In this document: positions 20,947 to 36,990 of the stretch, piece after piece
Layout of the letters: the number at the start of each line of letters is the position of its first letter
Numbering within the stretch: position 1 is the stretch's first letter
IMG/VR virus record: IMGVR_UViG_2841778323_000002
Span: 13,536-77,535 of that record
Length of the DNA stretch: 64,000 nt
From: a virus
Lineage: Duplodnaviria > Caudoviricetes
Reading direction: 5' to 3' (one strand)
Notes under the pieces: model-generated
The model's database searches: none
What the model was told of the DNA's origin: nothing
What the model saw: only the letters and a program-made list of their open reading frames with translations
Position numbers and translations under genes: made by a program

Positions 20947-20948
20947 AA

Positions 20949-21793: not shown

Positions 21794-22735
21794 ATGAAAA
21801 AAAATATGACAGATCCAGGACATGGAGGATATGATTCAGGGGCACCAGGAGTTCATGGATGTTTAGAGAAAGACATAGTTTTAGATGTGGCTAATAGGGT
21901 TGCTGAATATTTAAAAAATCAAAATATAGAGAATATAAATACTAGAACTACGGATGTATTTGTTACTTTAAATGATAGAACTAATGAAGCTAATAAATTA
22001 GGGGTAAACTCATTTGTATCAATACACTGTAATAGTTCTGAAAATCCTAATGCACAAGGGTTAGAAACTTATTGCTATAAGTTCAAATATAGAGATTTAG
22101 CTGATGTTGTGCACTCTGAATTAATAAAAGCAGGGCTTTACACTAAAGATAGAGGTGTAAAAGAAGGAAATTTACATGTAGTAAGAGAATCTAACATGCC
22201 TGCTTGTTTGGTTGAATTAGGATTTATAACTAATGAAGAGGACTATAATTTAATAATGAACAATAAAGATGGATTTGCTAAAGCAATAGCTAAAGGAATA
22301 TGTAAGTTCAATGGAGTTACTTGGAATGAATCCTCTGACATATTACCAAATAAAAATATTGATGTTACTTATCAAGTATATACAAATGGAAGATGGCTTC
22401 CTAATGTAACTAAAGCAAATGATTTTGCAGGAATTTTTGGAAGCCCTATACAAGCTATATATGCTAACTTAAATCAAGGAAGTATAAGCTATAGAGTCCA
22501 TACAGTAAATGGAACTTGGTTACCTTGGGTAAAAGATAGAAGTGATTATGCAGGTATATATGGTAAAAATATAGATGGGTTACAAATGCAATTAATAGGA
22601 TTAGATAACTATAGTGTTGAATATAGCGTATATGTAGAGGGTAGATGGCTTCCTTGGGTTATAGATTTAAATGACTATGCAGGTATATACGGTAAAGCTA
22701 TAGAAGCAATACAAGTACAAGTTATAAGAAAATAA
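21794..22735 (+). CDS. Endolysin: Amidase_3 domain plus Trp-rich (ChW-like) cell-wall-binding repeats
   Basis: DPGHGG, SIHCNS and LVELGF motifs; three WLP.V...D(Y/F)AGI repeats. Confidence 0.92.
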   Translation: MKKNMTDPGHGGYDSGAPGVHGCLEKDIVLDVANRVAEYLKNQNIENINTRTTDVFVTLNDRTNEANKLGVNSFVSIHCNSSENPNAQGLETYCYKFKYRDLADVVHSELIKAGLYTKDRGVKEGNLHVVRESNMPACLVELGFITNEEDYNLIMNNKDGFAKAIAKGICKFNGVTWNESSDILPNKNIDVTYQVYTNGRWLPNVTKANDFAGIFGSPIQAIYANLNQGSISYRVHTVNGTWLPWVKDRSDYAGIYGKNIDGLQMQLIGLDNYSVEYSVYVEGRWLPWVIDLNDYAGIYGKAIEAIQVQVIRK

Positions 22736-22742
22736 ATAGATA

Positions 22743-22782
22743 AAAAGAGTACCAAATAAAAAACTTATTTGGTACTCTTTTT
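22743..22782. terminator. Bidirectional terminator
   Basis: AAAAGAGTACCAAATAA...TTATTTGGTACTCTTTT between convergent genes. Confidence 0.85.
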
Positions 22783-23336
22783 TAATCTAAATCAGCACCA
22801 ATATTTGGTCCTGGGGTTGATGGTTCTGTTCCTGGAACATTGCTTATGTCCCCAGCATATCCATCATCTGCTAAGGAACCTCCATAACTATATGAACTTT
22901 GAGGATTATCACAAGGGATGTTTTTTTCTTGAGTAATTTTCTTTTCTAATGATGTTTCATCATTTTTTTGAATGTTTTTATAATCTGATTGATTTATATC
23001 TTTTTCTATATTTTTACTTTCTATAACTTTATGTTTTACTTCAGCTTGTGGTGTTTCTACAGGTTTTTTATTTTTAGAAGTTTCTGTTTTGATTTCTTCA
23101 GAATCCGTATTCTTACTATTTTCTGTTGCCTTTTCAACAACATCTTTATCTTTTTCTATTTTTTTAGAATCGTCTTTATTATCTTCTTTTTTATTCTTTT
23201 CTTCTTTTATTACTTTTTCCTGTTTAGTTTTTTCATTTTTATGTACATCTTTATTTGATGTATTCATATTACTTACAAAAAATCCAGAGCCTAAAATGAC
23301 AATACTACTTAATATACCGATTAACCCTTTTTTCAT
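22782..23336 (-). CDS. Exported/membrane-anchored low-complexity moron protein
   Basis: N-terminal signal/TM, K/E-rich linker, G/P-rich C-terminus. Confidence 0.7.
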   Translation of the reverse strand: MKKGLIGILSSIVILGSGFFVSNMNTSNKDVHKNEKTKQEKVIKEEKNKKEDNKDDSKKIEKDKDVVEKATENSKNTDSEEIKTETSKNKKPVETPQAEVKHKVIESKNIEKDINQSDYKNIQKNDETSLEKKITQEKNIPCDNPQSSYSYGGSLADDGYAGDISNVPGTEPSTPGPNIGADLD

Positions 23337-23770
23337 AATATCCCTCCTATATAATTCTATATTTATAATAACATAAATTTTTATTACAAAAAATGGAAAA
23401 TATATAAATAAATTACAATTTATCTTATTTGGTATAACTTCATAGCTAATTTAATCTAGGGCTACTTTAAGTCTTAATGTAAAAAACTATATATATTTAG
23501 TGAGGTACTGGGTATTGATATAAATTCATTAATTGAAGAAAGAAATAAATTAAAAATAAGTAAAATTGATTTGAACTTATAACTTGAACTTTAGTAATAT
23601 ATTTATATATATCAAATTCATTAAATATTCATGTAAGAACAAATAAAGGCATTGTTAAGTAGAAAGCACAGTTTTAAACTGTGACTTTTAGATGATTAAA
23701 AAAAGTAGATAGTTAATGGCTACTTTTTTAGTTATTTGCATATTAAAAATGTTAATAACCATATGGATAA

Positions 23771-23941
23771 GTATTAAATATTAGATATGCTAGAAGTACA
23801 GATTATAAAGTTATAGGATAAGTTAAATATGGAGATATAGTGAATTTACAATATTGTCTAAATAGATGGGTAAGCATAGAAGTATTTAAAGGAAAGAAAG
23901 GACTTGGGTATGTTAAGTCTGAGTTTTTAGAATTAATATAA
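23771..23941 (+). pseudogene. Decayed SH3b domain (endolysin C-terminus remnant)
   Basis: VLNIRYARSTDYKVIG*VKYGDIV...W..I...GLGYVKSEFL with an internal TAA at 23819; no start. Confidence 0.7.
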
Positions 23942-23951
23942 TGTGTTTAAT

Positions 23952-23981
23952 AAAAAGAGCATCTTAACTAGATGCTCTTTT
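23952..23981. terminator. Bidirectional terminator
   Basis: AAAAGAGCATCT-TAACT-AGATGCTCTTTT. Confidence 0.8.
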
Positions 23982-23985
23982 GGGT

Positions 23986-24582
23986 TTAATTAGTACTAGT
24001 ATATGAGTCTAATATTTCCATAAGCTCTTTGTTTTCTTTTTCTAACTTGTCGAGCTCTTCATCTCTGTAAGAGCAACATGTTTCTGGAGGTTTAAATATT
24101 TTTAATCCACCATGTCTATCCATAGGATAGAGGTTATGATGTCTATCTAGCCATACAATATAGAAAGTATTTCCTATTAAAAAACCATGAATACCACCTT
24201 TACTTTTACCTATACGTATCTGTCTACAATCGACTTGATCTAAAAAATCATCATCGAAGTTGAATTTATAATCAAGTTGATCCCAATCGTGAGGATGGCA
24301 TCTATAAGTTCCTTTCGTTAATGTTAAATCATTTCTAGTATAATTAGACACATTAGATAACATTTGAAACAGTTCAGGATACCATTTTTCACAAACTCCA
24401 CCTAAGTTGAAAGGTTCTGTTTTTAAATCTAAAAATCTAAAAGAAAACATTATCTTTTCTTTATTTCTATCTCTTAGGATTTGCATAGTTTCTTGATCTA
24501 TAGGAAAGTTTTTCTTTTTATCGGGTATATTAATCTTAGTAAATGTCTGTTTACCAAATTTGTTAGTTTTCTTCGGGTGCAT
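23986..24582 (-). CDS. Putative RelE-like RNase toxin paired with Panacea antitoxin
   Basis: FSFRFLD...IRI...IHGFL.GNTFYIVWLD.HH.LY motif; overlaps the antitoxin 3' end. Confidence 0.6.
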   Translation of the reverse strand: MHPKKTNKFGKQTFTKINIPDKKKNFPIDQETMQILRDRNKEKIMFSFRFLDLKTEPFNLGGVCEKWYPELFQMLSNVSNYTRNDLTLTKGTYRCHPHDWDQLDYKFNFDDDFLDQVDCRQIRIGKSKGGIHGFLIGNTFYIVWLDRHHNLYPMDRHGGLKIFKPPETCCSYRDEELDKLEKENKELMEILDSYTSTN

Positions 24583-25054
24583 ATATACTCCAATAATATT
24601 TTTTCATAAGTTCAGGGTCTATTTCCACATTGCATGGTTCCCACTCTTCATATCCAAGTCTAGCTTTAATCCAAGGATCTTCTGAATGAGTTAAAATTTC
24701 TAATTCATCACCATTAAAACCACCATAAGTATTAAATACAGTTTCTAAATGATCTATTATATCCTCATTTAATCCAGGAATATTTTTTATATTTAATGGT
24801 ATAAGATTTGCTCTAAAGTTTTTATATTTTGAATATAAGTCTCTAGACACTGGACCATGAACCCAAGCCTCGAAAGAAGAATTGATAAGAGGCTCTTTGT
24901 GTAGGGCTAAGTACCAAGCTTGAGCATAGTAACAAAGTTTTTGAAGTTTTTTATTTGTCATAGGCTCTTTGCTTAAGAAGTAATTAGCTATATCAAATAC
25001 ACTAAACATTTCTTTTTCCCCCTTGTTGTTAAATAAGTATGTAACCTTACCCAT
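24563..25054 (-). CDS. Panacea (DUF4065/SocA/GepA-like) antitoxin
   Basis: KLQKLCYYAQ, FEAWVHGPV and LTHSEDPW motifs. Confidence 0.85.
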   Translation of the reverse strand: MGKVTYLFNNKGEKEMFSVFDIANYFLSKEPMTNKKLQKLCYYAQAWYLALHKEPLINSSFEAWVHGPVSRDLYSKYKNFRANLIPLNIKNIPGLNEDIIDHLETVFNTYGGFNGDELEILTHSEDPWIKARLGYEEWEPCNVEIDPELMKKYYWSIYAPEEN

Positions 25055-25349
25055 TATATCACCTCTTATTCGATATTGGAATATAAATTCCCTTTTTTTA
25101 GAAATAATATTTGTAATTATTTCCTAAATATTATTTTATATTCATATTTATATGTAAATAGAATTATTAAATTTATACCTAGAACAAAAACAAACAAAAC
25201 ACTTATAAAGTTACTATTTTGATATAAATTTTGGTATTTTAGAGTTGATATAATCGGGTATAATATACATCTAATAAACCATAGTTGATAAAACTATTAA
25301 TTAGAAAAGGGATACTAGTGTCAACTAATACACCTTTTTATTACTTACT

Positions 25350-25538
25350 TTATTCCTTTTTTTTCCCATATTCTCTAATCATTGCACTTTCTTTTACAAC
25401 CCAGTCCCTACCAAATTTTTTACAATCTTCATCAGCTATTAATTTTCCAGTTTCAACTGCCTTTCTTAGTGTAGAATCTTTTAGTTCCCATAATTTAGTT
25501 GCCTCTGAAAATGAATATAATCCTTTAAAGCTACACAT
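25350..25538 (-). CDS. Small winged-HTH (excisionase-like) DNA-binding protein
   Basis: SFSEATKLW...STLRKA...KKFGRDWVV; RBS GGAGG. Confidence 0.75.
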   Translation of the reverse strand: MCSFKGLYSFSEATKLWELKDSTLRKAVETGKLIADEDCKKFGRDWVVKESAMIREYGKKKE

Positions 25539-25550
25539 AACTTTTACCTC

Positions 25551-25667
25551 CTATGAAAATAAATATTTTAATGCTAATACTACAAGAGCTATAGCTCCGA
25601 TGAATTTAATTAAAGCTAAAGTTAAATTAATTACACTTTTTACTAATTCTTTTTTATTATTTTTCAT
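25551..25667 (-). CDS. 38-aa hydrophobic peptide
   Basis: MKNNKKELVKSVINLTLALIKFIGAIALVVLALKYLFS*; its stop overlaps the RBS of the HTH gene. Confidence 0.6.
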   Translation of the reverse strand: MKNNKKELVKSVINLTLALIKFIGAIALVVLALKYLFS

Positions 25668-25734
25668 TGTAATTAAAATGGTCATATATTATTATAAAAG
25701 TAAGGGTGGTGGTAGGAACACCACCCTTAAGGAT

Positions 25735-25845
25735 TTATAGGCTTTCTAGTATCATTTTGATTACTGCTACTAGAGTTCCTATTTCAAGTGCGAGTTCCGT
25801 AAGTGTTTTAACCACTTCCGTGAACTCTTTTATTTTTTTGACCAT
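25735..25845 (-). CDS. 36-aa amphipathic peptide
   Basis: Strong RBS AAAGGAGG; MVKKIKEFTEVVKTLTELALEIGTLVAVIKMILESL*. Confidence 0.7.
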   Translation of the reverse strand: MVKKIKEFTEVVKTLTELALEIGTLVAVIKMILESL

Positions 25846-25870
25846 TTCTTTACCTCCTTTCTATATTTAT

Positions 25871-25899
25871 ATCATATCACGTATACGTGACACGAACAA
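25871..25899 (-). promoter_or_regulatory. SigA-like promoter with palindromic operator in the spacer
   Basis: TTGTTC-17-TATGAT on the minus strand; perfect palindrome TCACGTATACGTGA at 25877-25890. Confidence 0.65.
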
Positions 25900-26397
25900 T
25901 GCTTTTTAAAAACTTTTCCTTAATTTTTCCAAAAAAATATACTCCTTTGGGAGCATACTATTAACACATGTAAAATTATTAATAACTTTTAAAAATCTGT
26001 TGATAAGTTATGTAATTTATGGTGATAACTTTTAGGTATTGTCAAATGACTGATATAAATTATATATAATGCTTAAAACCATTAAAAATAAAGGGTTTTG
26101 TAAGCATAGGCATGAAATACATAGTTTTATGTTTAAAAAAATTATTTAAATAGTTAGATATAGTCATATGTCACAATTTTAAAGTTATGATAATGTACAC
26201 AAATAATAAAAACACCTAGCTTAAAAACTAAGTGTTTTAATATTAAGATTACGTATTACATAAAATTATGAAATAACTAATCCTATTTTGTATAATTAAA
26301 TCTCCGTTTATTAATTTTGTCAGTAGCAATTATATTTTAAAGTTTGAGTAGAAGTATTTTTATATTTTTTATTAAATCTTTTAATTTGATAGACATA

Positions 26398-26853
26398 TTA
26401 ATTACAATCTTCAAGTAAAGAGCTTCTTAAAAAGTAAAGAACTTTTGAGTAATAAGAAACTTGCTCATCAAATCCACTTATTAAGTTAGGTTCTGTATTG
26501 TCATTATCAAAAGATGCTATATCATATGCAGCTTTTCTAAGTGCTATAATATTTGATATAGCTAGGCATAAAACTTCTTTTTGAGAATAATTTCTAGAAG
26601 ATGAGATAGGAGGTATTTTTGAATTTTTTATAGCATCAGAAAGACTTCCTTTAGGAAATTCCTCTTGAAATCTTAATTGTTCAGCAGTCATGTCAATATA
26701 ATTATTTAAAGCATTATAAACTTGACCCAAATACTCATGTATAGATATAAAACTAGAATCTTTTATATTCCAATGTAAAATTTGAATATTTCTCTGGGCA
26801 ACAGTTAAATCCCATAATAGCATATTTATCATAGAGTATAAATCTTTGTTCAT
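26398..26853 (-). CDS. dps: Dps/ferritin-like protein
   Basis: LHWNI...F..IHEYL...Y......D..AEQLR ferroxidase-type motif. Confidence 0.75.
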   Translation of the reverse strand: MNKDLYSMINMLLWDLTVAQRNIQILHWNIKDSSFISIHEYLGQVYNALNNYIDMTAEQLRFQEEFPKGSLSDAIKNSKIPPISSSRNYSQKEVLCLAISNIIALRKAAYDIASFDNDNTEPNLISGFDEQVSYYSKVLYFLRSSLLEDCN

Positions 26854-27004
26854 AGTTGATATCTCTCCTTTCGTTTAAAATAAAATATGTTAATTAGTAT
26901 AAAAATGTTACAAATATATAATTTAGGGTATTTTTTTAATAAATTAAGTAATATTTTATAATATTGTTTTTAATTTAATATTGATTAGATGTTAATTGTT
27001 ATGT

Positions 27005-27051
27005 TAAAACAAAAGTAAGATAGTATAAATATCTATCTTACTTTTGTTTTA
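27005..27051. terminator. 19-bp perfect hairpin, probable bidirectional terminator
   Basis: TAAAACAAAAGTAAGATAG-9nt-CTATCTTACTTTTGTTTTA. Confidence 0.7.
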
Positions 27052-27112
27052 TATAAATTAAAAAATATTAAAAAAAATGCTTACTTTGAGAAGAAATAAT
27101 GGATAAATTTAT

Positions 27113-27269
27113 TATATAAAACTAGACAAATTAATTCTAAGATTAAAACAGATTTTTATAAGAAGATAATAAGATTCAATTAAAAGTTTGAGCGTAATCT
27201 GCATCAAAAATAGCACTTAAGCAATTATTGATATCTCAAAATTTAAACTTAATTTATGTAGTTATATAT
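27113..27269 (+). ncRNA. Putative structured ncRNA, copy 1 (unassigned family)
   Basis: Homologous to 62870-63018; 5'/3' ends pair; shared AAGATTAAAACAGA and TAAAAGTTTGAGCGT.ATCTG. Confidence 0.6.
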
Positions 27270-27280
27270 ATAAATATTAA

Positions 27281-27315
27281 CTGTTATCATAAAACTGACT
27301 ATTGAATATCGGTTC
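27281..27315. other. Right attachment junction of prophage 1
   Basis: Host-like ABC SBP frame stops abruptly at ...VRTDIQ-TAG; sequence beyond it is non-coding phage-like DNA. Confidence 0.65.
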
Positions 27316-27856
27316 TAACGTTTACTTTATCGTTTTGAGTATCAGTTCCTATAGTTAGACCATTTTTTTTCATAACATACTCTAATGTCATTTCAGGAAC
27401 CCCACCTTTTCTACCACCTAAAACCTCTTTACCTTTTAAATCCTCAAAAGAAAAACTATCAGTATTTTCACGAGCAACTAAAAAGCTTCCATCTTTTTGA
27501 GTTAATTGCGCAAAATTTACTGCATAATTTGAATTCCCTTTATTATATACATAAATAGATGCTTCTGGTCCCATAAGTCCTATATCTGCTTCTCCAGAAA
27601 GAAGTGCAGCCATTGTTTTATCTGCTCCCTGAGTATTTATAAGGTCTAACTCAATGCCCTCTTCCTCAAAAAAACCTTGAGTTATAGCTGCATATTGTGG
27701 AGCATAAAATACTGAATGGGTTACCTCTGCAACAGTTAGCTTATTTAAATTTTTAGATTTAATACTTTGAGATTTAGGAGTACATCCAATGAGAAGTAAA
27801 GATAGGCTAGTAATTAAAGTTATTAATATTATTAATTTTTTTAGCAAAAAAATCAC
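27299..27856 (-). pseudogene. ytlA: 5' fragment of ABC transporter substrate-binding lipoprotein (NitT/TauT, YtlA-like), interrupted by prophage 1
   Basis: Lipobox LIGC; VAEVTHSVFYAPQY, GADKTM, NFAQLTQKDGSFLV and GGRKGGVP motifs; only 185 aa, whereas such proteins are ~330-340 aa. Confidence 0.8.
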
Positions 27857-28027
27857 CCCTTAAAATTAAAGATAATGTATATTATTAAAAAATAAATTGA
27901 TTGGTGATAAAACCATTTTAGATATTTGTAAAAATACTATAGTTGTCAGGAAAATGTTTGCTTTGTGTTGATTTTGGGTATAAAAAATATAAAATAAAAT
28001 TTAATATAACTTTAGGGAGGGGAAATT

Positions 28028-28840
28028 ATGAATTACAAATATCTTATATCCAATAAAAGGTCAGTAAGGAAATTTAAAAATCAAGAAATAAAAAAATCAG
28101 ATTTCAGAATAATAGAAGAATATATAAATATGTCTAAAAAACTTGTACCAGAAATAAGTACTGAAGTTAAAGTTTTTAATAAAGATAAATTATATCCAAA
28201 ACTTGATAAAATAGCAGGATATAATGGACATATGATAGAAGCACCAAACTATGTAATCATTTTATCTGATACAGATAAAGGATACATAGAAAATTCAGGA
28301 TATATAGGAGAAAACTTAACTCTAAAGGCCATGGACTTAGGAATCGACTCATGTTGGGTTACCTTTAAAGAGAGTTCGCTTATAAAAGAAAAGCTTGAAA
28401 TTTTATCAGATAAGGAAGTTACAGCAATTATTGCACTAGGTTATGGAGATACTGTAAAAACTAAATCAGCTACTGGTGATTCATCTAGATTAGGTGTAGA
28501 AAAGATCGTTTATCTAGATAAATGGGGAGAAAATGCAACCATAGAATTATTAGAAGAAAGAGGATTATTAGATGCATTTAGTTTTGCTAGAATGGCACCA
28601 TCTACATTAAATAGACAACCTTGGAGATTTATAATTGATGGAGGCAAAGTGATTCTTGCAGTAAGAAAAGATGAATTTGCAAGTGAGTATGAAGGTAAAG
28701 TTGATGTAGGGATAGTTATGCTATACTTTTCATTAATAATTGATACGACTATGTTTGATTTAAAATGGACTTTAGAAAACGGTAATAGAAATTATGACGT
28801 ACCAACAGATTATGAAATAATAGGATATTGTAATATATAA
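28028..28840 (+). CDS. Nitroreductase family protein (host)
   Basis: RSVRKF, LGIDSCWV and APSTLNRQPWRF motifs. Confidence 0.88.
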   Translation: MNYKYLISNKRSVRKFKNQEIKKSDFRIIEEYINMSKKLVPEISTEVKVFNKDKLYPKLDKIAGYNGHMIEAPNYVIILSDTDKGYIENSGYIGENLTLKAMDLGIDSCWVTFKESSLIKEKLEILSDKEVTAIIALGYGDTVKTKSATGDSSRLGVEKIVYLDKWGENATIELLEERGLLDAFSFARMAPSTLNRQPWRFIIDGGKVILAVRKDEFASEYEGKVDVGIVMLYFSLIIDTTMFDLKWTLENGNRNYDVPTDYEIIGYCNI

Positions 28841-28842
28841 AA

Positions 28843-28890
28843 AATAACTGAGTTCAAGCCTGTTTATAACAAACTTGAACTCAGTTATTT
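28843..28890. terminator. Bidirectional terminator
   Basis: AAATAACTGAGTTCAAG...CTTGAACTCAGTTATTT. Confidence 0.88.
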
Positions 28891-28907
28891 TGTTTTTATA
28901 TTAAATT

Positions 28908-29711
28908 TTATCTTTTACTTTTATAAATTTTTTCTGCTATATTTAAAACTTGATACATAATTAAAGCACAAAGGGCTAATACTATTACTCCCATCATTAC
29001 TAAATCTAATTTGAAAACTTGGCCACCATAAACTATTAAGTACCCAAGACCATATCTAGATACTAAGAATTCACCTACTATTACGCCAACCCAAGCCATA
29101 CCTATATTAATTTTAGTTAAATTTATTAAATTTCCTATGTTAGAAGGAAATATTAATTTTGTAAGAATTTGAAGTTTTGATGCTCCAAAACTTTTAAGCA
29201 TTTTGACTTTTTCCTCATCAACACTTATAAAATAATTATAGGCGGATAATATAGTAACAACAACAGATATAGTAATAGCTATAACTATTATTCCATTTAC
29301 ACCAGCTCCAGCCCAAACTATTAAAATTGGTGCTAATGCTGTTTTAGGAAGTGCATTTAGTACAACCAAAAATGGATCAAGTATTTTAGACAATCTTTCT
29401 GACCACCAAAGCATTATAGCTACTAATATTCCAAGAATTGTACCAACTGCTAATCCAACTATTGTCTCATAGCTAGATATTAATATATGCTTAAATAATT
29501 CTCCATTTTGAATATATTTTATAAAAAGATTGTAAATATCACTAGGTTTGCTAAATAGAAATACATCTATTATATTAAGTCTAGCAAGTAATTCCCAAAG
29601 AGCTATAAATCCAACCAATATAAATATTTGATAAAAAAAGATTAGATTCTTTTCTTTTTTTAGCGATTTTAAATATTGTTTATGACCTTGTGATACATTA
29701 TTTTGTTTCAC
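28908..29711 (-). CDS. ytlD: ABC transporter permease (NitT/TauT, YtlD-like)
   Basis: GTG start 29711 with RBS AAGGAG; LNALPKTALAP, EAA-like loop and GEFLVSRYGLGY motifs. Confidence 0.88.
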   Translation of the reverse strand: MKQNNVSQGHKQYLKSLKKEKNLIFFYQIFILVGFIALWELLARLNIIDVFLFSKPSDIYNLFIKYIQNGELFKHILISSYETIVGLAVGTILGILVAIMLWWSERLSKILDPFLVVLNALPKTALAPILIVWAGAGVNGIIVIAITISVVVTILSAYNYFISVDEEKVKMLKSFGASKLQILTKLIFPSNIGNLINLTKINIGMAWVGVIVGEFLVSRYGLGYLIVYGGQVFKLDLVMMGVIVLALCALIMYQVLNIAEKIYKSKR

Positions 29712-29889
29712 TAGAATCAATCTCCTTCCACAAGATATTAAAATAGTCTTTAAAATTTTCAGCACTTCTTGATATTATAGGAGTTCTAGTTTCTGATATT
29801 TTTAAATCTATATTATAGATACTTTTTATAGATGCAGGACGTTTGGATAAAACTGCGACCTTATCTGACATAGAAATAGCTTCAGATAA
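29698..29889 (-). pseudogene. ytlC: 3' fragment of ABC ATP-binding gene (YtlC-like), split by prophage 2
   Basis: Translates LSEAISMSDKVAVLSKRPASIK...YFNILWKEIDSSETK*, the segment right after the VTHD H-loop; overlaps the permease start. Confidence 0.85.
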
Positions 29890-29905
29890 ATGTATTAAAG
29901 TTCCT
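29880..29905. other. Left attachment junction of prophage 2
   Basis: ATPase homology ends at ~29890, 14 nt beyond the integrase stop codon. Confidence 0.75.
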
Positions 29906-31496
29906 ATTTACCTGAAGCTATAGTATTACTTGAATTGATACCTATTAGGTTTACCTTTATTGTGTCTGTATCAGAGTCCCATGTCATGTAATCTACTACT
30001 GTAGATAGTAACAGTCTCTTCTTATTGATATCAGAGGTATCAATTTCTTTATTGAATTTATTTAAATTATCTATAAGCATATTTATATTAATATCAACTT
30101 GATTATTTTCCATAGACATAGTATTTAAAGATTCTAATTGTGATTTTAAATTAGATAAGTCATTATTTAAAGATTCTAATTTATTGATTATAAAAGTAGA
30201 TGCAGAGCTTTCGGTAACCTTGGCTAGTTGCATAACTAAATTATCAATGTATGTTTCCTTTTCTTTAATTTGATTATTTATTGAGTTTATCTCAGTTTTT
30301 ATATTTTTACTATTCTTAGAGTTTTCTAACTTGCTATCTTTATAACTTGACATTATAGATTTAATACTTTTATTTTTTAATTCATCTATAACTTTAGATT
30401 CAGCCTTATCAGATCTGATATTTCTACAATCACAAGCTGATACTCCTAAAGATTTCTTTGTTCCACATATGTAATAATAGATAGTGCCGCTTTTAGAGTT
30501 TTTATAAGTAATTCTCATATTAGAGCCACACTTAGAACATTTTAAAAGACCTGATAATAATGCTTTACTTCCAGTTCCAGCTCTAGGAGCTTTAGCCTTA
30601 TTTGCATTAAGTAGCCTTTGTGCTTCAATCCATTTATCCGAGTCTATAACACCTTTATGTTTAGCAACAGCAGCTATAGGACTATCTGTATTTTTAGCAT
30701 AAGTTAGGATACCATGTATATTGTCTATATCTCCCATAACATCTATATTAGACTTTCTTAGATAATCAACTACACTTTTATCAGCTTTAACATATGCTGG
30801 ATTTTTTAGGATTAAAGATAAGGCACTAGGATCAAGGTTACCTCCACGAGTTCCTTTAATTCCATTCTCATACATATATTTATAAAGTTTTGAAAGTGAT
30901 CTAAGCTCTAAATATTTATCAAATATCAATTTAACAATTTCTATTGTATCTTCATCAACTTTAAGTTTATACATTTTTCTTTGGTTCATATTTTCATCAT
31001 AGTAGTTAATTTGAGTACTAATAAAACCATATGGAGGCATACCTCCTAGCCATCTTCCTGTTCTAGCTAACTCATACATATTATCTCTAACACGTTCAGC
31101 TATAGTTTCTCGTTCTAACTGAGCAAATACAGATGATATATACATCATAGCACGTCCCATAGGAGTACTAGTATCAAATTGTTCTTTAATTGATACAAAA
31201 GATATATTAAGCTTATTTAGATCTTCTATAAGAGTAGAGAAGTCAGAAACATTACGGGATATTCTATCTAATCTATAACATATTAAATAATCAAACTTTT
31301 TATCTTTAGCATCTTTAAGCATTTCTTTAAACTTTGGTCTATCCATAGATTTACCAGAGAAACCTTCATCTTCGTATACTAAAAATTCATTAACTCCTAG
31401 GTTCTTAGCATAGTCCATGCAAAGTTGTATTTGGTTTTCTATAGATTCACCTTTTCCAGTAAATTTTGATTTTCTTGAATAAATTGCTGCAATCAT
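29904..31496 (-). CDS. Large serine integrase
   Basis: YSRKS catalytic motif, DEGFSG, RLDRISRN, recombinase domain, CxxC...C zinc ribbon, coiled coil. Confidence 0.95.
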   Translation of the reverse strand: MIAAIYSRKSKFTGKGESIENQIQLCMDYAKNLGVNEFLVYEDEGFSGKSMDRPKFKEMLKDAKDKKFDYLICYRLDRISRNVSDFSTLIEDLNKLNISFVSIKEQFDTSTPMGRAMMYISSVFAQLERETIAERVRDNMYELARTGRWLGGMPPYGFISTQINYYDENMNQRKMYKLKVDEDTIEIVKLIFDKYLELRSLSKLYKYMYENGIKGTRGGNLDPSALSLILKNPAYVKADKSVVDYLRKSNIDVMGDIDNIHGILTYAKNTDSPIAAVAKHKGVIDSDKWIEAQRLLNANKAKAPRAGTGSKALLSGLLKCSKCGSNMRITYKNSKSGTIYYYICGTKKSLGVSACDCRNIRSDKAESKVIDELKNKSIKSIMSSYKDSKLENSKNSKNIKTEINSINNQIKEKETYIDNLVMQLAKVTESSASTFIINKLESLNNDLSNLKSQLESLNTMSMENNQVDININMLIDNLNKFNKEIDTSDINKKRLLLSTVVDYMTWDSDTDTIKVNLIGINSSNTIASGK

Positions 31497-31551
31497 AAGA
31501 TTCCCCCTTCTTATATATAGTACAACAATATAGTAAACATATGGTAGGTTA

Positions 31552-32013
31552 TTAATTAAAATTTAAGTGGGTAAACTTATAAGAAATAAACTCGCTAGGA
31601 ACACCAAAGTATTTACTTAATTCATCAATTGTAATTAGATTATTTACCTCCATAATATCGATAAGCATATTATCATCTATCAATAACTCCGCTGTGAATT
31701 TATTTGCTTCATTTTCATATCTATCTGTAACTGAAAATGTATAGTGCTTTAAAAAGCAAACATTAAGATCTTTATGTAAAATTGCATGACCAAGCTCATG
31801 AGAAATAACACACTTAATCTCATGTTCATCTAAATTAGAATTTAAATGAATTATAGGAGTATTAAGTGTATTTTGAAAGAAGCCTTTAATATTGCCTAAA
31901 GGCTCATGAAGAATAGGGATGTTTAAGTAGTCACATAATTCAAATGGATTTCTTGTTTTAAACTTAGTTACTAAATTATTTACTGTATTTTTAATGCTAC
32001 TCAAATTTAACAC
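31552..32013 (-). CDS. ImmA/IrrE-family metalloprotease (anti-repressor)
   Basis: HELGH and ENEANKF motifs; next to the repressor. Confidence 0.9.
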   Translation of the reverse strand: MLNLSSIKNTVNNLVTKFKTRNPFELCDYLNIPILHEPLGNIKGFFQNTLNTPIIHLNSNLDEHEIKCVISHELGHAILHKDLNVCFLKHYTFSVTDRYENEANKFTAELLIDDNMLIDIMEVNNLITIDELSKYFGVPSEFISYKFTHLNFN

Positions 32014-32017
32014 CTCC

Positions 32018-32446
32018 TTATTTCTTAGACTTTTGCATAGTTTTAGCTAATTCAATTCCATTTCTAATTGCATTTCTTAAAAGAACAAGGTCATTATCAT
32101 CAACTATTTGTCCGTTAAGCATAAGACCTTTTTGATCCAAAATTTGAGACATAGTTTCTTCTAATAATTGTTCTACATCCTTTTCTTGATCATTTAGGAT
32201 GACTTTATTATCTGAATTAATTTTTCCTAACATAGTTAACAATTCATCTAGAGATAAATTTATAGCAGTACTAATTTTTTCTAATGCATCTAGTGTTGGT
32301 TCTACTGGCTTTTGGCTTCTAGGATCAACACCTTTCTCTAATTTATCTATATAAGTATGACTAAGTCCGCACTTCTTAGAAAATTCTCTAAGAGATAAGT
32401 CATTATCAAGTCTATATTTTTTTATTATATCTCCTAAGCTTTGCAT
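32018..32446 (-). CDS. CI/ImmR-like XRE repressor
   Basis: N-terminal HTH LSLREFSKKCGLSHTYIDKLEKG. Confidence 0.88.
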   Translation of the reverse strand: MQSLGDIIKKYRLDNDLSLREFSKKCGLSHTYIDKLEKGVDPRSQKPVEPTLDALEKISTAINLSLDELLTMLGKINSDNKVILNDQEKDVEQLLEETMSQILDQKGLMLNGQIVDDNDLVLLRNAIRNGIELAKTMQKSKK

Positions 32447-32492
32447 TATATCACTCCTTTATTAAGTATTTAGTTAAATTATATCAAAAATA

Positions 32493-32808
32493 TGTTAACG
32501 ATAGTTTACAAAAATAAACAAAGTTGTAAAACATAGTTGACTAATAAAAAGAAATGTTGTAAACTATGGTTAACAAGATAGATAAGGAGGATGATCAATA
32601 TTAGAAATAATTTATTTCATATTAGAAAAGAATTAAAAATATCTCAAGAAAATTTAGCAAAAAAAGTAGGTATATCAAGAACATATCTATCTAAAATAGA
32701 AAATGGACATTCTAATCCATCTACAGAAATTACCTACAAAATAGCTAATGTATTAAATACAAGTATAGAGGATATATTTTTTAAGAAGTATGTAAACCAT
32801 AATTAACA
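32493..32808. promoter_or_regulatory. Four 18-bp palindromic operators of the lysogeny switch
   Basis: TGTTAACGATAGTTTACA (32493), TGTAAAACATAGTTGACT (32525), TGTAAACTATGGTTAACA (32558), TGTAAACCATAATTAACA (32791). Confidence 0.8.
32591..32806 (+). CDS. Cro-like XRE HTH protein
   Basis: SQENLAKKVGISRTYLSKIENG; divergent from the repressor. Confidence 0.88.
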   Translation: MINIRNNLFHIRKELKISQENLAKKVGISRTYLSKIENGHSNPSTEITYKIANVLNTSIEDIFFKKYVNHN

Positions 32809-32821
32809 AAGAGGTGTTAGT

Positions 32822-33361
32822 ATGAAGATACTAGATAAAAGAGAAATTTTAGGACAATATGTAACTACATTTGGAAGTTTAGTAAATCCATTATTTTTAG
32901 CTAAGGATGTAGCTAAGTGGATAGATCATAATAAACCAAGTGAAATGATTGCTAACGTTGATAAGAATGAAAAGCTGAAGGCGATAGTATCGCTCTCAGG
33001 TCAGTCGAGAGAAATGTGGTTTTTAACAGAAGATGGGCTTTATGAAGTTTTAATGCAAAGTAGAAAACCTATCGCTAAGAAGTTAAAAAAGGAAATTAAG
33101 AAAATATTAAAACAGATACGACTTACTGGTGGATATATTCCAATATCTATCGAAGATGATGAAAAAATAATCTTAGAAAAAGCTGTAAAAATATTAAATA
33201 AAACTCTAGAAAGCAAAGAAATTCTTTTAAAGCAAAAAGAAGAAGAGTTAGAGGTTTTAAGATTGAGAAATTATATCAAAACAATTGTAATAGCAGAACA
33301 AAGAGAAGAACTTGAAAAATCAAAAGTTACTGTAAAAGTAGATTTGGAAGTTAGTAAATAA
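32822..33361 (+). CDS. Bro-N domain antirepressor
   Basis: PLFLAKDVA and FLTEDGLYEVLMQSRKPIAK motifs. Confidence 0.85.
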   Translation: MKILDKREILGQYVTTFGSLVNPLFLAKDVAKWIDHNKPSEMIANVDKNEKLKAIVSLSGQSREMWFLTEDGLYEVLMQSRKPIAKKLKKEIKKILKQIRLTGGYIPISIEDDEKIILEKAVKILNKTLESKEILLKQKEEELEVLRLRNYIKTIVIAEQREELEKSKVTVKVDLEVSK

Positions 33362-33418
33362 AGATAAATTGCATAGGACAATTTTCAATAAACATAAAAT
33401 TTAGTGGGGGTGGTTGCA

Positions 33419-33670
33419 ATGGCACCAAGAAAAAGCAGAGAAATAAAAGTTGAGGTAGTTTACCCAGAAGATCCATATTGGATTGAGGAAATAGAAAGAA
33501 GAAAAGCTAAATGGATACTTGATAGACAAAGAGAAAAATATGGGGATGAAGCATTGAGTATAGCTTACCCAATATGGATAAGAACAAAGGAATTAGAAGA
33601 AACTGGTTTGAGTTATGAAGAAGCTAAAGAAATAGCAATTAAAGAATATAACGATAAACAAGGAGCTTAG
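33419..33670 (+). CDS. Hypothetical early protein
   Basis: ORF with RBS in the early operon. Confidence 0.65.
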   Translation: MAPRKSREIKVEVVYPEDPYWIEEIERRKAKWILDRQREKYGDEALSIAYPIWIRTKELEETGLSYEEAKEIAIKEYNDKQGA

Positions 33671-33709
33671 GCTCTTTGGCAATGAAAATTTGTACAAGGA
33701 GTGAGTTAA

Positions 33710-33832
33710 ATGAGTATAAAAATACTTCAAAGTTTTATGAAAAAATATAGTTATTTAGGACAAGAACTAGATAATAAATTTGATGAATTAAAAGCTTATA
33801 GTAAGCAAAAAGAGGACAAGCAACATTGTTAA
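33710..33832 (+). CDS. Small hypothetical protein (40 aa)
   Basis: RBS AAGGAGTG; MSIKILQSFMKKYSYLGQ... Confidence 0.55.
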   Translation: MSIKILQSFMKKYSYLGQELDNKFDELKAYSKQKEDKQHC

Positions 33833-33969
33833 ATACAGTATTTCAAAACATTAATTTAATGAAAATAAAAAAAGAGTCCAGAAGGACCCAATAAAAAATT
33901 CCAATTTAATTATATACGTAGATAAAGATAACTACAAGTAAAACTTATAAATTAATAGATTTAAATAAA

Positions 33970-34653
33970 GTGGGGGTGAGTTTCTTGGAGTATAGCATAC
34001 ATGGATTTAGCCAAGAAAAAGCAATAGAACTTGAATTAGATGATAGAGATCTATTGATACTAAAATGGTTTGTAAAATTTAAAGATAGTGAAAGAATGAT
34101 ATCAAAGATCATTTCAGATGATAAGTACTATTGGATTAAGTATGATGGTGTAACAGAGGATATACCTATTACAAAGATGAAGAAGGATACAGTCTATAGA
34201 AGACTAAAGAAAATGTGTAAGATAGGAATATTAAAACATAAAACAGTAAAAATAGGAGGGACATATTCTTATTATGCTCTAGGTAGAAACTATAAATTAT
34301 TAATAGATACTAACTATAGGACATCGGATTTAAATCCGAAGCTATCGGAAATGAATCCCGAGGGTACGGATATAAATCCTTACGGTACGGATTTAAATCC
34401 CGAACAAAAGACCCTATTACCATATCCTAATACTATATCTATTGATAGAGTAACTAGTGTAAATTTATCCACAGATTTGAATAGTATAAAAGATATGTAT
34501 AAATTATCTGATAGTGAACTAAAAAGTATAGTTTTAGCAGTAGATATATCTGTTGAAGATGGAACAATTAAATCACCAAAAGGCAGCGAGGGATATTGGA
34601 AGTATATACATAAAATATGCAAAGACAAGTTAAGTTCAAAAAAAGGAAATTAG
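33970..34653 (+). CDS. Replication initiator (winged-HTH N-terminus)
   Basis: YSIHGFSQEK...YYWIKY...VYRRLKK motif; internal iterons. Confidence 0.75.
   Translation: MGVSFLEYSIHGFSQEKAIELELDDRDLLILKWFVKFKDSERMISKIISDDKYYWIKYDGVTEDIPITKMKKDTVYRRLKKMCKIGILKHKTVKIGGTYSYYALGRNYKLLIDTNYRTSDLNPKLSEMNPEGTDINPYGTDLNPEQKTLLPYPNTISIDRVTSVNLSTDLNSIKDMYKLSDSELKSIVLAVDISVEDGTIKSPKGSEGYWKYIHKICKDKLSSKKGN
34324..34402. repeat. Four ~21-bp iterons, probable replication origin
   Basis: CGGATTTAAATCC / CGGAAATGAATCC / CGGATATAAATCC / CGGATTTAAATCC at ~21-nt spacing. Confidence 0.75.
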
Positions 34654-34667
34654 GAGTGATATAAACT

Positions 34668-34799
34668 ATGGGAATAATAGAAGCAGCTAAGATTCTTAGA
34701 GACATAGCAAAGCAGATTGCTAAAGATAGAGGTATAACAGAACAAGAAGCATGGTTAGAAGCTTTAGAGGTATTCAAAAGAGAATATAGAGTTTGGTAA
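34668..34799 (+). CDS. Small hypothetical protein (43 aa)
   Basis: RBS AGGAGTG; MGIIEAAKILRDIAKQIAKDRGITEQEAW... Confidence 0.65.
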   Translation: MGIIEAAKILRDIAKQIAKDRGITEQEAWLEALEVFKREYRVW

Positions 34800-34872
34800 G
34801 TTTATATTTAAGGTTAGAATAAAAAATACCTAGTAGAGATAGCATTGCAATTAATATAAGAAAAGCGAGAAC

Positions 34873-35328
34873 CTACTGTTTCGCTTTTCCTATAGTGTTT
34901 CTCAAGGTTGATGAAGAGTTATAACCTAAAGAAAAAGAAGTTATTGAATCTATTAATCTATCAGCATCATTCTTATCTATATAAACCTTTATATTTATTA
35001 TAGAAATTTTGTAATAGTTTAATATGACCTGCATGGATAGGATAACATCATTATCTTCTTTAGAAAGCTTTGAAGTTTTATTAGTTAGACTATCGATTAA
35101 TGTTTCTATAAATTTAATATCTTTATTGGCTTTAGCAGGATCAATGTTTTTTGTAGCAACAGATTGTACCAATAAATACATATAATTATCTATTATTTCT
35201 AATTCTTTAATATATTCGTTTTGAATTGGATTCGGAGCTAGAGAATTAAATGCATATGTTGTATTTATATTTATTGTAAATAGAATTAATACAATTGAAA
35301 ATACAATACTTAATTTCTTTATAAACAT
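34873..35328 (-). CDS. Secreted helical moron protein
   Basis: RBS AAGGAGG; signal peptide ending TYA; own terminator at 34861-34888; SigG-like promoter upstream. Confidence 0.7.
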   Translation of the reverse strand: MFIKKLSIVFSIVLILFTININTTYAFNSLAPNPIQNEYIKELEIIDNYMYLLVQSVATKNIDPAKANKDIKFIETLIDSLTNKTSKLSKEDNDVILSMQVILNYYKISIINIKVYIDKNDADRLIDSITSFSLGYNSSSTLRNTIGKAKQ

Positions 35329-35426
35329 ATATTCACCTCCTTTATACAACTATTATGTGTAGATGAAAAACTATAAATTCAGAATATGTAATAAAAATTT
35401 ATATAAAAAAGAAAAGTTAAATAGGG

Positions 35427-35951
35427 GTGATAAGAGTGAAATATTCTAATTCTTATGATTTTGATTTTACAGATAACTATATGGCTTTATTAGCTTGCAT
35501 ATTAAATCCAAGTTTAACTATAGGAAAAGCTATTAAACAGATAACTCTTTATGATCCTAAGGATGATAAAGGAGGATATTATAGAAAGGTTAAACCTAAA
35601 CAGAATCATAATTATAAAGTTAAGGTTTTAGATGAAGTTGAAAAGAAAGAAATAGAATTTGATGAACTAGATGATTGTTGTAAATTTCTAGATATGAGAA
35701 GGGCAGATATAACAACTTATATAAAGCACAATAGATTGTTTAGAAAGATATTTAGGATACAAGCTTTAGAAACTATAAGAGAAGTTGAAAGAAAGCCGTT
35801 GATAGTTATAGATAAATTAAAAAATGAGACTATAGAGTTTGAGAGTGTTAATAAAGCATGTGACTATTTAAATGCTAGCAGAGGCAATTTAAATCAAGCC
35901 ATAGAAGCTAAAAGACTTTTTAGAAAGGATATAAACTTGAGTATAAAATAA
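35427..35951 (+). CDS. Protein with two NUMOD1/IENR1-like HTH repeats
   Basis: IEFDELDDCCKFL and IEFESVNKACDYL repeats. Confidence 0.6.
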   Translation: MIRVKYSNSYDFDFTDNYMALLACILNPSLTIGKAIKQITLYDPKDDKGGYYRKVKPKQNHNYKVKVLDEVEKKEIEFDELDDCCKFLDMRRADITTYIKHNRLFRKIFRIQALETIREVERKPLIVIDKLKNETIEFESVNKACDYLNASRGNLNQAIEAKRLFRKDINLSIK

Positions 35952-35963
35952 GGGGTGATAAGA

Positions 35964-36185
35964 ATGAGTAAATCAACAGAGTTAAAGTATGTTGAAATAG
36001 AACTTAGTATACCCAGTGTAAAAGAAATATTCTTTAAAGCAAGTGACTATAAAACATATACAAATTATATGGCACTAGCACAATGTATATGTGGTAAAGA
36101 GATCAATGGAAAATTAAGGTTTCCAGAAAGTGCAGATAAAATAATGAGTGCTTGGGGGATCAGAGGTGGAAATAAGGAGGAATAA
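35964..36185 (+). CDS. Hypothetical protein
   Basis: RBS AGGGGTG; NYMALAQCI motif shared with the upstream gene. Confidence 0.6.
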   Translation: MSKSTELKYVEIELSIPSVKEIFFKASDYKTYTNYMALAQCICGKEINGKLRFPESADKIMSAWGIRGGNKEE

Positions 36186-36228
36186 ATTTATGGATTAAAA
36201 GAAAGATAAGTTATAGGTGGTGGAAAAT

Positions 36229-36327
36229 ATGAAAAATCGAGATAAATTGTTTATATTAATTGCTATAGTTATAGCTATTATAATTTTAATTTGTTTTAAG
36301 CTATTTGCTAGTATAGGTATAAGTTGA
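36229..36327 (+). CDS. 32-aa single-TM peptide
   Basis: RBS AGGTGG; MKNRDKLFILIAIVIAIIILICFKLFASIGIS*; bidirectional terminator at 36350-36377. Confidence 0.55.
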   Translation: MKNRDKLFILIAIVIAIIILICFKLFASIGIS

Positions 36328-36966: not shown

Positions 36967-36990
36967 AAGAAAAACGGGAAGTGACTGCCT

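Follow-up and report, generated by a model that had tools for sequence, protein, structure and literature searches.

Two prophages in two genes of one ABC importer: a recurrent integration hotspot and its possible rebuilding by mother-cell excision

Why do two different prophages sit in two genes of the same ABC importer, and are these genes lost or only set aside? The locus lies in the 64,000 nt analysed here (the window), which belong to a 77.5-kb provirus record that comprises two complete prophages on either side of a 2.6-kb host island. The original prediction held that each prophage splits a different subunit gene and offered two explanations: a transporter that works only after both prophages have excised, or an integration hotspot that is neutral during growth. 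We lean, with a little better than even confidence, towards two site-specific prophages in one spore-stage importer whose genes would be rebuilt by mother-cell excision, as is the case with SPbeta.

Anatomy of the host island and its two junctions

The host island (27301-29883) holds a nitroreductase gene and an intact permease gene together with two gene pieces: the 5' half of a binding-protein gene and the final 60 codons of an ATPase gene. Genome G046 carries a near-identical, phage-free locus (L109), which matches window positions 27301-29891 with 98.2% identity and shows no homology beyond them. Its binding-protein and ATPase genes are both full length. Because this locus holds whole genes, both breaks in the window are insertion junctions and not chance stops. 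The junctions and the comparison with G046 confirm that two prophages split two subunit genes, and they answer the objection that phage-free relatives might share the short gene.

Binding protein (NMT1-type), permease (BPD_transp_1) and ABC ATPase are encoded together according to Pfam, with the full operon present in relatives. Judged from these domains, the transporter is an ABC importer whose ATPase is of the NitT/TauT type. The label YtlACD denotes a putative orthology, based on the name "ytlC" used for CD1927 in PMC3789822 and on the regulon list in PMC3416734. The permease gene (28908..29765, minus strand; PF00528, E 4.6e-23) is whole and the fragments contain no internal stop, both as originally noted. 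The permease shares 85-89% amino acid identity with those of named Paraclostridium and Paeniclostridium species, and relatives were gathered through permease similarity. A TM1586-type nitroreductase gene of the host (28028..28840, plus strand; PF14512, E 1.1e-36), absent from the original prediction, sits between the permease and binding-protein genes and occupies this position in L005, L007, and L109 as well. No deposited phage gave a near-identical match to the island.

The binding-protein fragment (27299..27856, minus strand) comprises 185 codons of an NMT1-type gene and ends ...VRTDIQ*. As the product covers positions 5-118 alone of the 216-position NMT1 profile, it represents the 5' half; full-length binding proteins of relatives have 345 aa. 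The TAG stop is formed at the phage junction itself. Host sequence stops at the shared core CAAT (27301..27304, minus strand), which was defined from aligned intact, left-junction, and right-junction sequences; homology to G046 ends at 27301, and phage DNA runs from 27300. The 185-aa reading frame ends where prophage 1 begins, as proposed. The phage-side half of the junction (27279..27300, minus strand) is an attP-derived arm. This arm (..AATCAGT..ATGATAACAGT..) also borders the split binding-protein gene of three Paraclostridium genomes, in which the arm at the far junction is its inverted partner.

The window holds the right-hand 27.3 kb of prophage 1 (1..27300, plus strand), which according to PHROGs matches encodes terminase, portal, capsid, tail, tape measure, and endolysin, followed by accessory genes on the minus strand. 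The prophage begins 13.5 kb before the window, at base 1 of the contig, with its own large serine recombinase, int1 (contig bases 4-1524; Resolvase, Recombinase, and Zn-ribbon domains). The early region also lies before the window. The match for a candidate excision helper in prophage 1 (contig 7068-7268) was weak (E 0.026).

At the other junction, a start-less 3' fragment of the ABC ATPase gene (29698..29883, minus strand) comprises 60 codons and a stop at 29698. Its host codons start with E-A-I-S-M-S-D-K, just past the H-loop motif THD of intact relatives, and the core is GAAGC (29879-29883). An attP-derived arm (29884..29903, minus strand) follows as the phage-side half; it is unlike the intact gene in G046 and other relatives. 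The stop codon of int2 lies 20 bases upstream of the fragment, so that the fragment adjoins the serine integrase of prophage 2 as first described. The 530-aa recombinase int2 (29904..31496, minus strand; Resolvase, Recombinase, and Zn_ribbon_recom domains) shares 58% identity with its counterpart at this site in C. difficile-titled loci and 24% with int1. It stands in line with a lysogeny module of an ImmA-type metalloprotease and an XRE repressor (31552..32446, minus strand; PHROGs), as for an ordinary phage integrase.

Prophage 2 (29884..64000, plus strand) spans at least 34.1 kb and includes early genes, terminase, portal, protease, capsid, tail, tape measure, and endolysin (PHROGs). An 83-aa ORF (33419..33667, plus strand) is a candidate recombination directionality factor for int2 by homology to two small ORFs: one of 58 aa beside the int2-type recombinase in C. 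difficile-like loci and one of 82 aa in a Romboutsia element. This family of small ORFs accompanies the int2-type recombinase, and none of its members tested against Pfam matched a family.

Both elements interrupt a transporter coding sequence, carry their own large serine recombinase at the element end, and contain lysogeny, replication, packaging, head, tail, and lysis modules. Domains and modules identify them as complete serine-integrase prophages, the right end of prophage 2 lying past the record. We identified no sporulation promoter in the two prophages. The record itself starts at the stop codon of int1 and ends inside prophage 2 (window position 64000), before either missing gene half (3' of the binding-protein gene, 5' of the ATPase gene).

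Recurrence of both insertion sites in relatives

We surveyed 112 genomes of the family Peptostreptococcaceae, of which 79 have the binding-protein gene and 80 the ATPase gene. The binding-protein gene is split at the same codon (residues 183-188) in 14 of the 79, with examples in P. bifermentans, P. dentum, P. tenue, C. difficile-titled loci, and Terrisporobacter mayombei. The ATPase gene is split at the same site in 16 of the 80; its tail lies in an open frame of just 63-81 aa, and the 5' half was recovered in all ten split genomes searched. The attachment sites are CAAT in codon 183 of the binding-protein gene and GAAGC in the S/G-E-A codons after the ATPase H-loop. Two unrelated families of large serine recombinases are each tied to one site, and both sites are used across at least four named genera. 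The hotspot that the original prediction offered as its second option is thus borne out, and on this genomic evidence both junctions are established as a recurrent integration hotspot. In six C. difficile-like genomes, both genes are split, by small non-phage islands.

If two prophage contigs had been mis-joined through a short host segment, the double insertion would be an artefact, and the cut of the record at gene boundaries is in keeping with this. However, 10 further provirus contigs show the same tandem order, and the junctions lie exactly at attachment cores used in other genomes. We rejected mis-assembly because of the tandem integrase order and regard an artefact as extremely improbable. 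On these contigs (at least ten), the integrases are about 41 kb apart where this was checked; the int2-type integrases are at least 97% and the int1-type integrases 84-98% identical. Among five related provirus records searched for the far gene halves, ATPase 3' fragments alone were present, and all int1-type records stop 3 bases past the integrase match.

Permanent inactivation is a second alternative, in which the prophages are fixed passengers of a decaying pseudogene cluster. The complementary halves are not in the record, which ends before them, genome G096 has a 10.2-kb insert without a recombinase at the ATPase site, and in G039 only residues 226-345 remain of the 3' half of the binding-protein gene, all of which is compatible with decay. 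However, the three island genes and both fragments are stop-free, the island and the intact G046 locus share 98.2% identity, and int1 and int2 are full length with all domains. We therefore consider permanent inactivation improbable.

A stronger competitor is a neutral hotspot only: conserved sites in a gene dispensable for growth, excision just on ordinary induction, and lysogens that sporulate without the transporter. All ten of the closest species-level genomes have a whole ATPase gene and just three a split binding-protein gene, so the insertions in this lineage are recent and sporadic, which fits neutrality. Therefore, no selection argument can be made within the Paraclostridium group. 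Since at least ten provirus records hold both integrases on one contig, double disruption is tolerated. Both phages are complete, with standard repressor, ImmA, and integrase modules, and the permease gene of the C. difficile-like genome G015 is frameshifted; these points favour the neutral hotspot as well. What speaks against it comes from the split genes themselves, from their promoters, from a transcript, and from the small ORF of prophage 2 that travels with the int2-type recombinase family.

Restoration, selection, and sigma-K control

In-silico excision restored the reading frame in 19 of 19 cases (binding-protein gene 10/10, ATPase gene 9/9), all of them relatives with the same cores. 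Selection was measured in eight C. difficile-like species-level genomes, six of them with split binding-protein genes. Here, dN/dS is 0.03-0.08 for both halves of both genes, which indicates strong purifying selection. The ATPase gene gave 0.034 (0.031 for its 3' fragment alone) and the six split binding-protein genes 0.057, while dS in this comparison reached 0.39-0.80. For the recombinase in these genomes, dN/dS is 0.18, and dS correlates with that of the host gene (r 0.86). Purifying selection on both halves at dS 0.2-0.8 argues against a merely neutral hotspot.

The link between ytl genes and sigma-K that the original prediction drew holds in print. The list in PMC3416734 places ytlA, ytlC, and ytlD in the B. 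subtilis sigma-K regulon. In C. difficile 630, PMC3789822 reports lower expression of CD1927 ("ytlC"), CD1904, and CD1891 in a sigK mutant and sigma-K-type promoters mapped ahead of both 5' fragments. This evidence concerns orthologues in C. difficile 630 and B. subtilis. In L099 and L102, the 5' half is preceded by the promoter string published for CD1927. The regions ahead of the Paraclostridium genes look similar to the C. difficile promoters, with the strict sigma-K pattern (AC, 15-18 bases, CATA..T) present at one locus alone. As it matched only L002, the strict pattern was rejected as a promoter test. Sigma-K promoters retained before both 5' fragments are not what a neutral hotspot would lead one to expect.

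A search of sequencing runs with a C. difficile-like locus listed no RNA run. Four RNA-seq runs, chosen by species label and irrespective of growth stage, were searched for rejoining at the ATPase element alone. In run X13, seven reads with four start points, all in sense orientation, carry the exact rejoined ATPase junction. They join base 585 of L134 to base 19144 within the shared GAAGCA and skip 18,558 bases. The junction was not seen in runs X1, X7, and X16, which carries no weight in runs taken irrespective of growth state. The one positive run of the four comes from a C. difficile-labelled organism of another genus, in which the element is a non-phage island. A rejoined sense transcript counts against the neutral hotspot, which we judge doubtful but a serious contender.

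We favour, instead, the following sequence of events. Two complete temperate phages have integrated site-specifically into two genes of one ABC importer, each via its own large serine recombinase, and disruption of the transporter would cost nothing during growth. As for SPbeta in spsM, the forespore would keep the prophages, and the terminal mother cell would excise them. Precise excision should rebuild each gene, the binding-protein gene and the ATPase gene, and excision of prophage 2 should also set the permease gene behind the ATPase promoter. As each of the two genes would be rebuilt by its own excision, a working transporter would need both. Several of the observations above speak against this reading: the position of int2 in line with the repressor, the lack of an identified sporulation promoter in the prophages, the sporadic insertions among close relatives, the few rejoined reads from one run of four, the frameshifted permease of G015, the recombinase-free insert of G096, and the poor fit of the Paraclostridium upstream regions to the strict sigma-K pattern.

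Developmental excision is likely in the C. difficile-like genomes, and we infer that these two prophages also excise in sporulating cells of the present host. The AND gate of the original prediction has only indirect support, from the six doubly split C. difficile-like genomes, whose gene halves are under purifying selection, and from the one RNA run with a rejoined ATPase transcript. That two independent DNA rearrangements, run by two unrelated recombinase lineages and present both as live phages and as domesticated islands, gate a single transporter under sigma-K control is a tentative reading to which we give somewhat less than an even chance.

Comparison with known gene-splitting elements

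To our knowledge, gene-splitting elements that are excised in the mother cell are known for few sporulation genes, with one element each. Here, two unrelated recombinase families target a single transporter, each at its own exact codon and in several genera, and the series runs from live phages to small fixed islands.

The likeness is greatest to SPbeta in B. subtilis spsM, for which PMC4191935 describes the recombinase SprA and the directionality factor SprB. There, a complete, active prophage that carries a large serine recombinase interrupts a gene under sigma-K control, and excision rebuilds spsM; mother-cell excision is what we propose here. In both cases, the integrase gene lies at the element end beside the gene fragment. 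In contrast to SPbeta, two unrelated phages occupy two subunit genes, and the target is a transporter instead of a spore-envelope enzyme.

The skin elements in sigK (SpoIVCA in B. subtilis; CD1231 with CD1234 in C. difficile), as presented in PMC5025042, resemble the C. difficile-like islands: at both sites these are short non-phage elements with vertical inheritance, they retain an intact recombinase next to the 3' gene piece, and the genes they split are under selection. Unlike skin, the islands hit a member of the sigma-K regulon and not sigK, and their cargo is an ethanolamine-utilisation operon or an AraC/PadR/ECF-sigma/ABC module.

The elements gin in gerE of B. cereus (PMC5595907) and yin in yabG of C. 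botulinum (PMC10747680) are likewise serine-recombinase elements in late mother-cell genes, with phage and non-phage forms. As described in these reports, they are single elements in single genes of one or few strains, whereas the present case involves two sites in one operon system and at least four named genera. The C. tetani site-A prophages lie in sigK (PMC5553647); presumably these are the phiCT...A records, whose serine recombinases, like that of C. perfringens PhiS63, are 43-46% identical to int1 among the matches listed, with a different target gene. We found no papers on ytlA- or ytlC-type genes split by mobile elements or on the C. difficile-like islands, subscription journals being outside the search.

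If both excisions are developmental, the locus would be a natural two-input DNA switch. Two unrecognised rearrangements would then join the sporulation programme of C. difficile, and strain 630 would have two skin-like elements beyond skin. The CD1905 recombinase would run an element with the eut operon between two ytlC pieces, and CD1882 would run one that separates the two parts of the binding-protein gene. Rebuilding the transporter would then cost the mother cell its ethanolamine-utilisation operon. Each of the two sites also comes with a recombinase and a candidate helper protein, which gives two new matched sets. One caution is that "sporulation genes in phages" can be pieces of host genes trapped at the ends of a prophage, as in the present record.

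Two prophages and the split genes of a host transporter

The source record is a single provirus of 77,535 bases, of which the window covers bases 13536–77535. It opens, ahead of the window, at the stop codon of int1, the 507-aa serine recombinase of prophage 1 (contig bases 4–1524, minus strand). Behind int1, the first 13.5 kb of the record hold a gene for a Cap4-type nuclease, an ImmA/XRE pair, and then YqaJ, RecT, and RusA genes. Within the window, prophage 1 encodes terminase, portal, capsid, tail, tape measure, and endolysin proteins as far as about 22.7 kb; minus-strand accessory genes follow. Prophage 2 starts at 29904 with its recombinase int2, followed by ImmA, repressor, anti-repressor, and replication genes and then terminase through endolysin; the record stops within it at window base 64000.

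Both prophages carry further features. In prophage 1, the Cap4-type dsDNA nuclease gene right behind int1 and a 549-aa neighbour without a family (contig bases 1935–4659, L135) may form an anti-phage accessory pair. Its right-end accessory region encodes a SocA/Panacea-type antitoxin domain protein that overlaps a 198-aa ORF without a Pfam family (23986–25054, minus strand), and a ferritin/Dps-like protein (26398–26853, minus strand). In prophage 2, an ORF of 187 aa (38227–38790) matches tyrosine-integrase PHROGs (phrog_216, E 2e-65), at a length below that expected of a complete integrase. Prophage 2 also has a divided tape measure gene, whose parts (50212–51393 and 52615–54999) match consecutive stretches of one PHROG profile; with an HNH homing-endonuclease ORF in the gap (51438–52472), the arrangement resembles a homing insertion, either of the intron type or free-standing.

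A host island of 2.6 kb separates the prophages and carries genes of a YtlACD-like ABC importer. The binding-protein ORF (27299–27856, minus strand) has 185 codons and covers the first half only of the NMT1 profile. The host part of the start-less ATPase fragment runs from the codons for E-A-I-S-M-S-D-K to a stop at 29698, with the int2 stop codon 20 bases upstream. The permease gene is whole, and a TM1586-type nitroreductase gene sits between it and the binding-protein gene. The near relative G046 is 98.2% identical to the window over 27301–29891, with no identity beyond, and has full binding-protein and ATPase genes. Thus, the original prediction described the split genes correctly, and the short genes are not common to a phage-free near relative. 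In all ten of the nearest species-level genomes the ATPase gene is uninterrupted, and in only three of them is the binding-protein gene split. The insertions look recent in this host's lineage.

Integrases 97–100% identical to int2 occur in 17 provirus records. Int1-type integrases occur in 11 records at 97–98% identity and in three at 84%, and all of these records end 3 bases after the integrase. Double lysogeny is nonetheless common, with both types present together on ten contigs. A search for the far gene halves in five provirus records found the ATPase 3′ fragment alone.

Junctions were defined by alignment of intact and split genes. At the binding-protein site, four intact relatives read ...GAT(A/G)T(N)CAAT and run on into TT(T/C)AA(T/C)G. 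In the window and three Paraclostridium genomes, the sequence after CAAT switches to (A/T)(A/G)TCAGT..ATGAT(A/G)ACAGT. At their far junctions, the same three genomes have the inverted counterpart, ACTGT(T/C)ATCAT..AACTGATAACCAAT, immediately behind the stop codon of an int1-type recombinase gene. Such a pair of imperfect inverted arms round a short core is typical of a serine-integrase attP. At the ATPase site, the common core GAAGC lies in the codons after the H-loop (THD-I/L-S/G-E-A). The arms in C. difficile-titled loci are AGTTGCACTTT...GAAGC...AAAGTGCAAC, and the window has its own arm with the same core.

Restoration of the split genes in relatives and published sigma-K control

Excision rebuilds the genes, in silico for relatives and in RNA for one island. 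When the gene halves were joined computationally at the shared core, one continuous frame of 345 codons resulted for the binding-protein gene in 10 of 10 genomes (G001, G002, G003, G010–G015, G092) and one of 249–253 codons for the ATPase gene in 9 of 9 (G009–G016, G096). The split genomes outside this test were G031, G039, G041, and G102 for the binding protein and G029, G033, G076, G089, G097, G098, and G099 for the ATPase.

Selection was assessed by pairwise Nei-Gojobori dN/dS over eight C. difficile-like genomes; as genome pairs share ancestry, the values are descriptive and not independent tests. For the ATPase gene, dN/dS is 0.034 overall, 0.035 in the 5′ part, and 0.031 in the 3′ fragment (mean dS 0.22, maximum 0.39). 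The binding-protein gene has 0.068 over the eight genomes and 0.057 among the six in which it is split, where dS reaches at most 0.58 across the full gene and 0.80 within its 3′ part. The permease value is 0.038 (seven genomes, 15 usable of 21 pairs); G015 was left out because its permease gene is broken. The break leaves pieces of 173 and 100 codons (L125 2093–2900), either by sequencing error or at the onset of decay, and the two split neighbour genes of G015 are still intact. The ATPase-site recombinase has a dN/dS of 0.18, and its dS correlates with ATPase-gene dS (r 0.86, 28 pairs); a 58-aa ORF beside it has 0.44. Unless it is translated within a whole protein, a start-less 58-codon fragment at a dN/dS of 0.03 would be hard to explain.

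The ytlA, ytlC, and ytlD genes are listed under the sigma-K regulon among conserved sporulation genes in the accessible part of Miller et al. (PMC3416734). For C. difficile, the accessible sections of Saujet et al. (PMC3789822) give expression ratios relative to the parent strain and a mapped start site with a sigma-K-type promoter for both 5′ fragments. The CD1904 permease has ratios of 0.26 in the sigE mutant and 0.13 in the sigK mutant, with no mapped start site listed; the gene fragments are not discussed in those sections. The published CD1927 promoter string stands unchanged upstream of the ATPase 5′ half in the loci L099 and L102, and the CD1891 string is found in L017 with a few changes. 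According to the accessible part of Emerson et al. (PMC2784873), CD1905 and CD1882 were cloned among seven conserved recombinases and proved inactive on the cwpV switch. We infer from their numbering and the gene order that these are the two split-site recombinases.

Four RNA-seq runs from four studies, C. difficile by species label, were mapped to L134, a 20-kb stretch of G010 with both ATPase junctions, and reads were counted from 88% likeness. In run X13, seven reads with four start points join base 585 to base 19144, skipping 18,558 bases, with 6 letters that fit either side. The joint, ...GGTGAAGCA followed directly by ATAAGC..., is exactly that of the predicted rebuilt ATPase gene. The run is stranded, and the first mate of all seven reads is on the plus strand, the same as other reads over the transporter genes. 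In that orientation, the 5′ half is covered to a depth of 10.4 and the 3′ fragment with the permease to 4.9, against 0.5–1.2 for the recombinase gene and 0 just within the other element end; hence, most permease-reaching transcripts in this culture come from the rejoined form. The joint comes from one run with few reads and from an organism other than the window's host, and a template-switch artefact at the 6-base homology is possible. Runs X1, X7, and X16, mapped to the same locus, gave no joint.

A tie between excision and sporulation would rest on the sigma-K promoters, the selection on the halves, and the analogy with SPbeta and skin. We consider sporulation-linked excision slightly the more probable case for the window's two live phages. 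In the accessible part of PMC10747680, recent lists of intervening elements name sigK, spsM, spoVFB, gerE, and yabG only. The literature searched, with most subscription journals outside its coverage, gave no description of elements splitting the ytl transporter.

Recurrence of the insertions across relatives

We regard the anatomy and the integration hotspot as settled. The species-representative collection holds 261 permease relatives. Among the best 80 of these 261 loci, which were examined, the closest named relatives are Paraclostridium and Paeniclostridium species (85–89% amino-acid identity). Split ATPase genes with an adjoining int2-type recombinase were found in four C. difficile-titled records and one Romboutsia, and two Tepidibacter loci have the fragment without such a recombinase. 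The binding-protein gene is split in P. bifermentans, P. dentum, P. tenue, two C. difficile-titled records, and Terrisporobacter mayombei. In the Clostridium loci (C. tetani, C. argentinense, and others), both genes are whole.

Split genes were then counted in 112 genomes of the family around one named permease relative. The binding-protein gene was matched in 79, with full length in 62, a 5′ half ending at residues 183–188 in 14, the 3′ half alone in one, and short pieces, maybe contig-end cuts, in two. Thirteen of the 14 split genomes have the whole 3′ half elsewhere; in G039, it is truncated to residues 226–345. Where an insert lies on a single contig, its length is 7 to 54 kb. The ATPase tail was matched in 80 genomes; its open frame is only 63–81 aa in 16, is 115–123 aa in two of ambiguous status, and is cut by a contig end in three. 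The ATPase 5′ half was found in all ten of the 16 split genomes that were searched, and inserts are 4.3 to 28 kb where both halves share a contig (nine of ten). Both genes are split in six genomes (G010–G015), and the ATPase gene alone in G009 and G016.

Some loci hold extra gene parts. G092 (C1:679954–682686) has one binding-protein 5′ half and then two 3′ halves about 2 kb apart, which points to elements entering the site one after another. In Romboutsia timonensis, an additional ATPase 5′ half (residues 1–193) precedes a complete gene by 6 kb (L018 2685–10056), and in P. tenue additional N-terminal fragments lie 2.3 kb ahead of the whole gene (L005 6769–7112). Both cases may be scars left by earlier elements or by ones that supply a replacement gene part.

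Recombinases and cargo of the elements

Int1 is 70–78% identical to the binding-protein-site recombinases of three Paraclostridium genomes and 54–56% to those of C. difficile-like genomes. Int2 shares 58% identity with the ATPase-site recombinase of C. difficile-titled loci and 66% with that of Romboutsia; identity between the two families is about 24%. The nearest deposited phages by recombinase are two Terrisporobacter phages (48% and 51%). Int1 also resembles, at 43–46% identity, the recombinases of C. tetani phages phiCT453A, phiCT9441A, phiCT19406A, and phiCTC2A and of C. perfringens PhiS63. The C. tetani site-A prophages are located in sigK (PMC5553647, accessible part).

At the binding-protein site, C. 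difficile-like genomes carry a 7–15 kb island without phage genes, comprising a recombinase, an AraC-type regulator, PadR, an ECF-type sigma factor, and an ABC exporter. At the ATPase site of two C. difficile-titled loci (L017 1–9870; L016 1–9860), ethanolamine-utilisation genes (eutG, S, P, V, W, A, B onward) come after the recombinase within the splitting element. The whole insert is 18.5–28 kb in six C. difficile-like genomes and only 4.3 kb in two; G013, the one inspected, has a release-factor-3-type gene instead of eut. G096 has a 10.2-kb insert at the same core (L111 2500–12700) with attP-like inverted arms and no recombinase gene, carrying a PLP enzyme, a sigma-54 activator, an aminotransferase, RidA, and an antiporter. 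The short ATPase tail frame is common to four related genomes, G096–G099.

The 58-aa ORF lies divergent beside the int2-type recombinase in all C. difficile-like loci examined. Its homologues have 82 aa in the Romboutsia element and 83 aa in prophage 2 (33419–33667; tblastn E 3e-6, 14 invariant alignment columns). For int1-type recombinases, the C. difficile-like islands carry a 93-aa ORF that weakly matches two other elements (E 4e-7 and 2.5e-4) and, at E 0.026, prophage 1 (contig bases 7119–7187). A Pfam search of the small ORFs beside the recombinases gave no family. Judged by size, position, and co-occurrence, our guess is that they are candidate directionality factors.

The accessible part of a paper on sporulation genes in gut phages (PMC10294663) counts ytlC (K02049) among phage-borne genes. 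Provirus calls such as the present record take in host ytlC-type end fragments, which could inflate counts of phage-borne sporulation genes.
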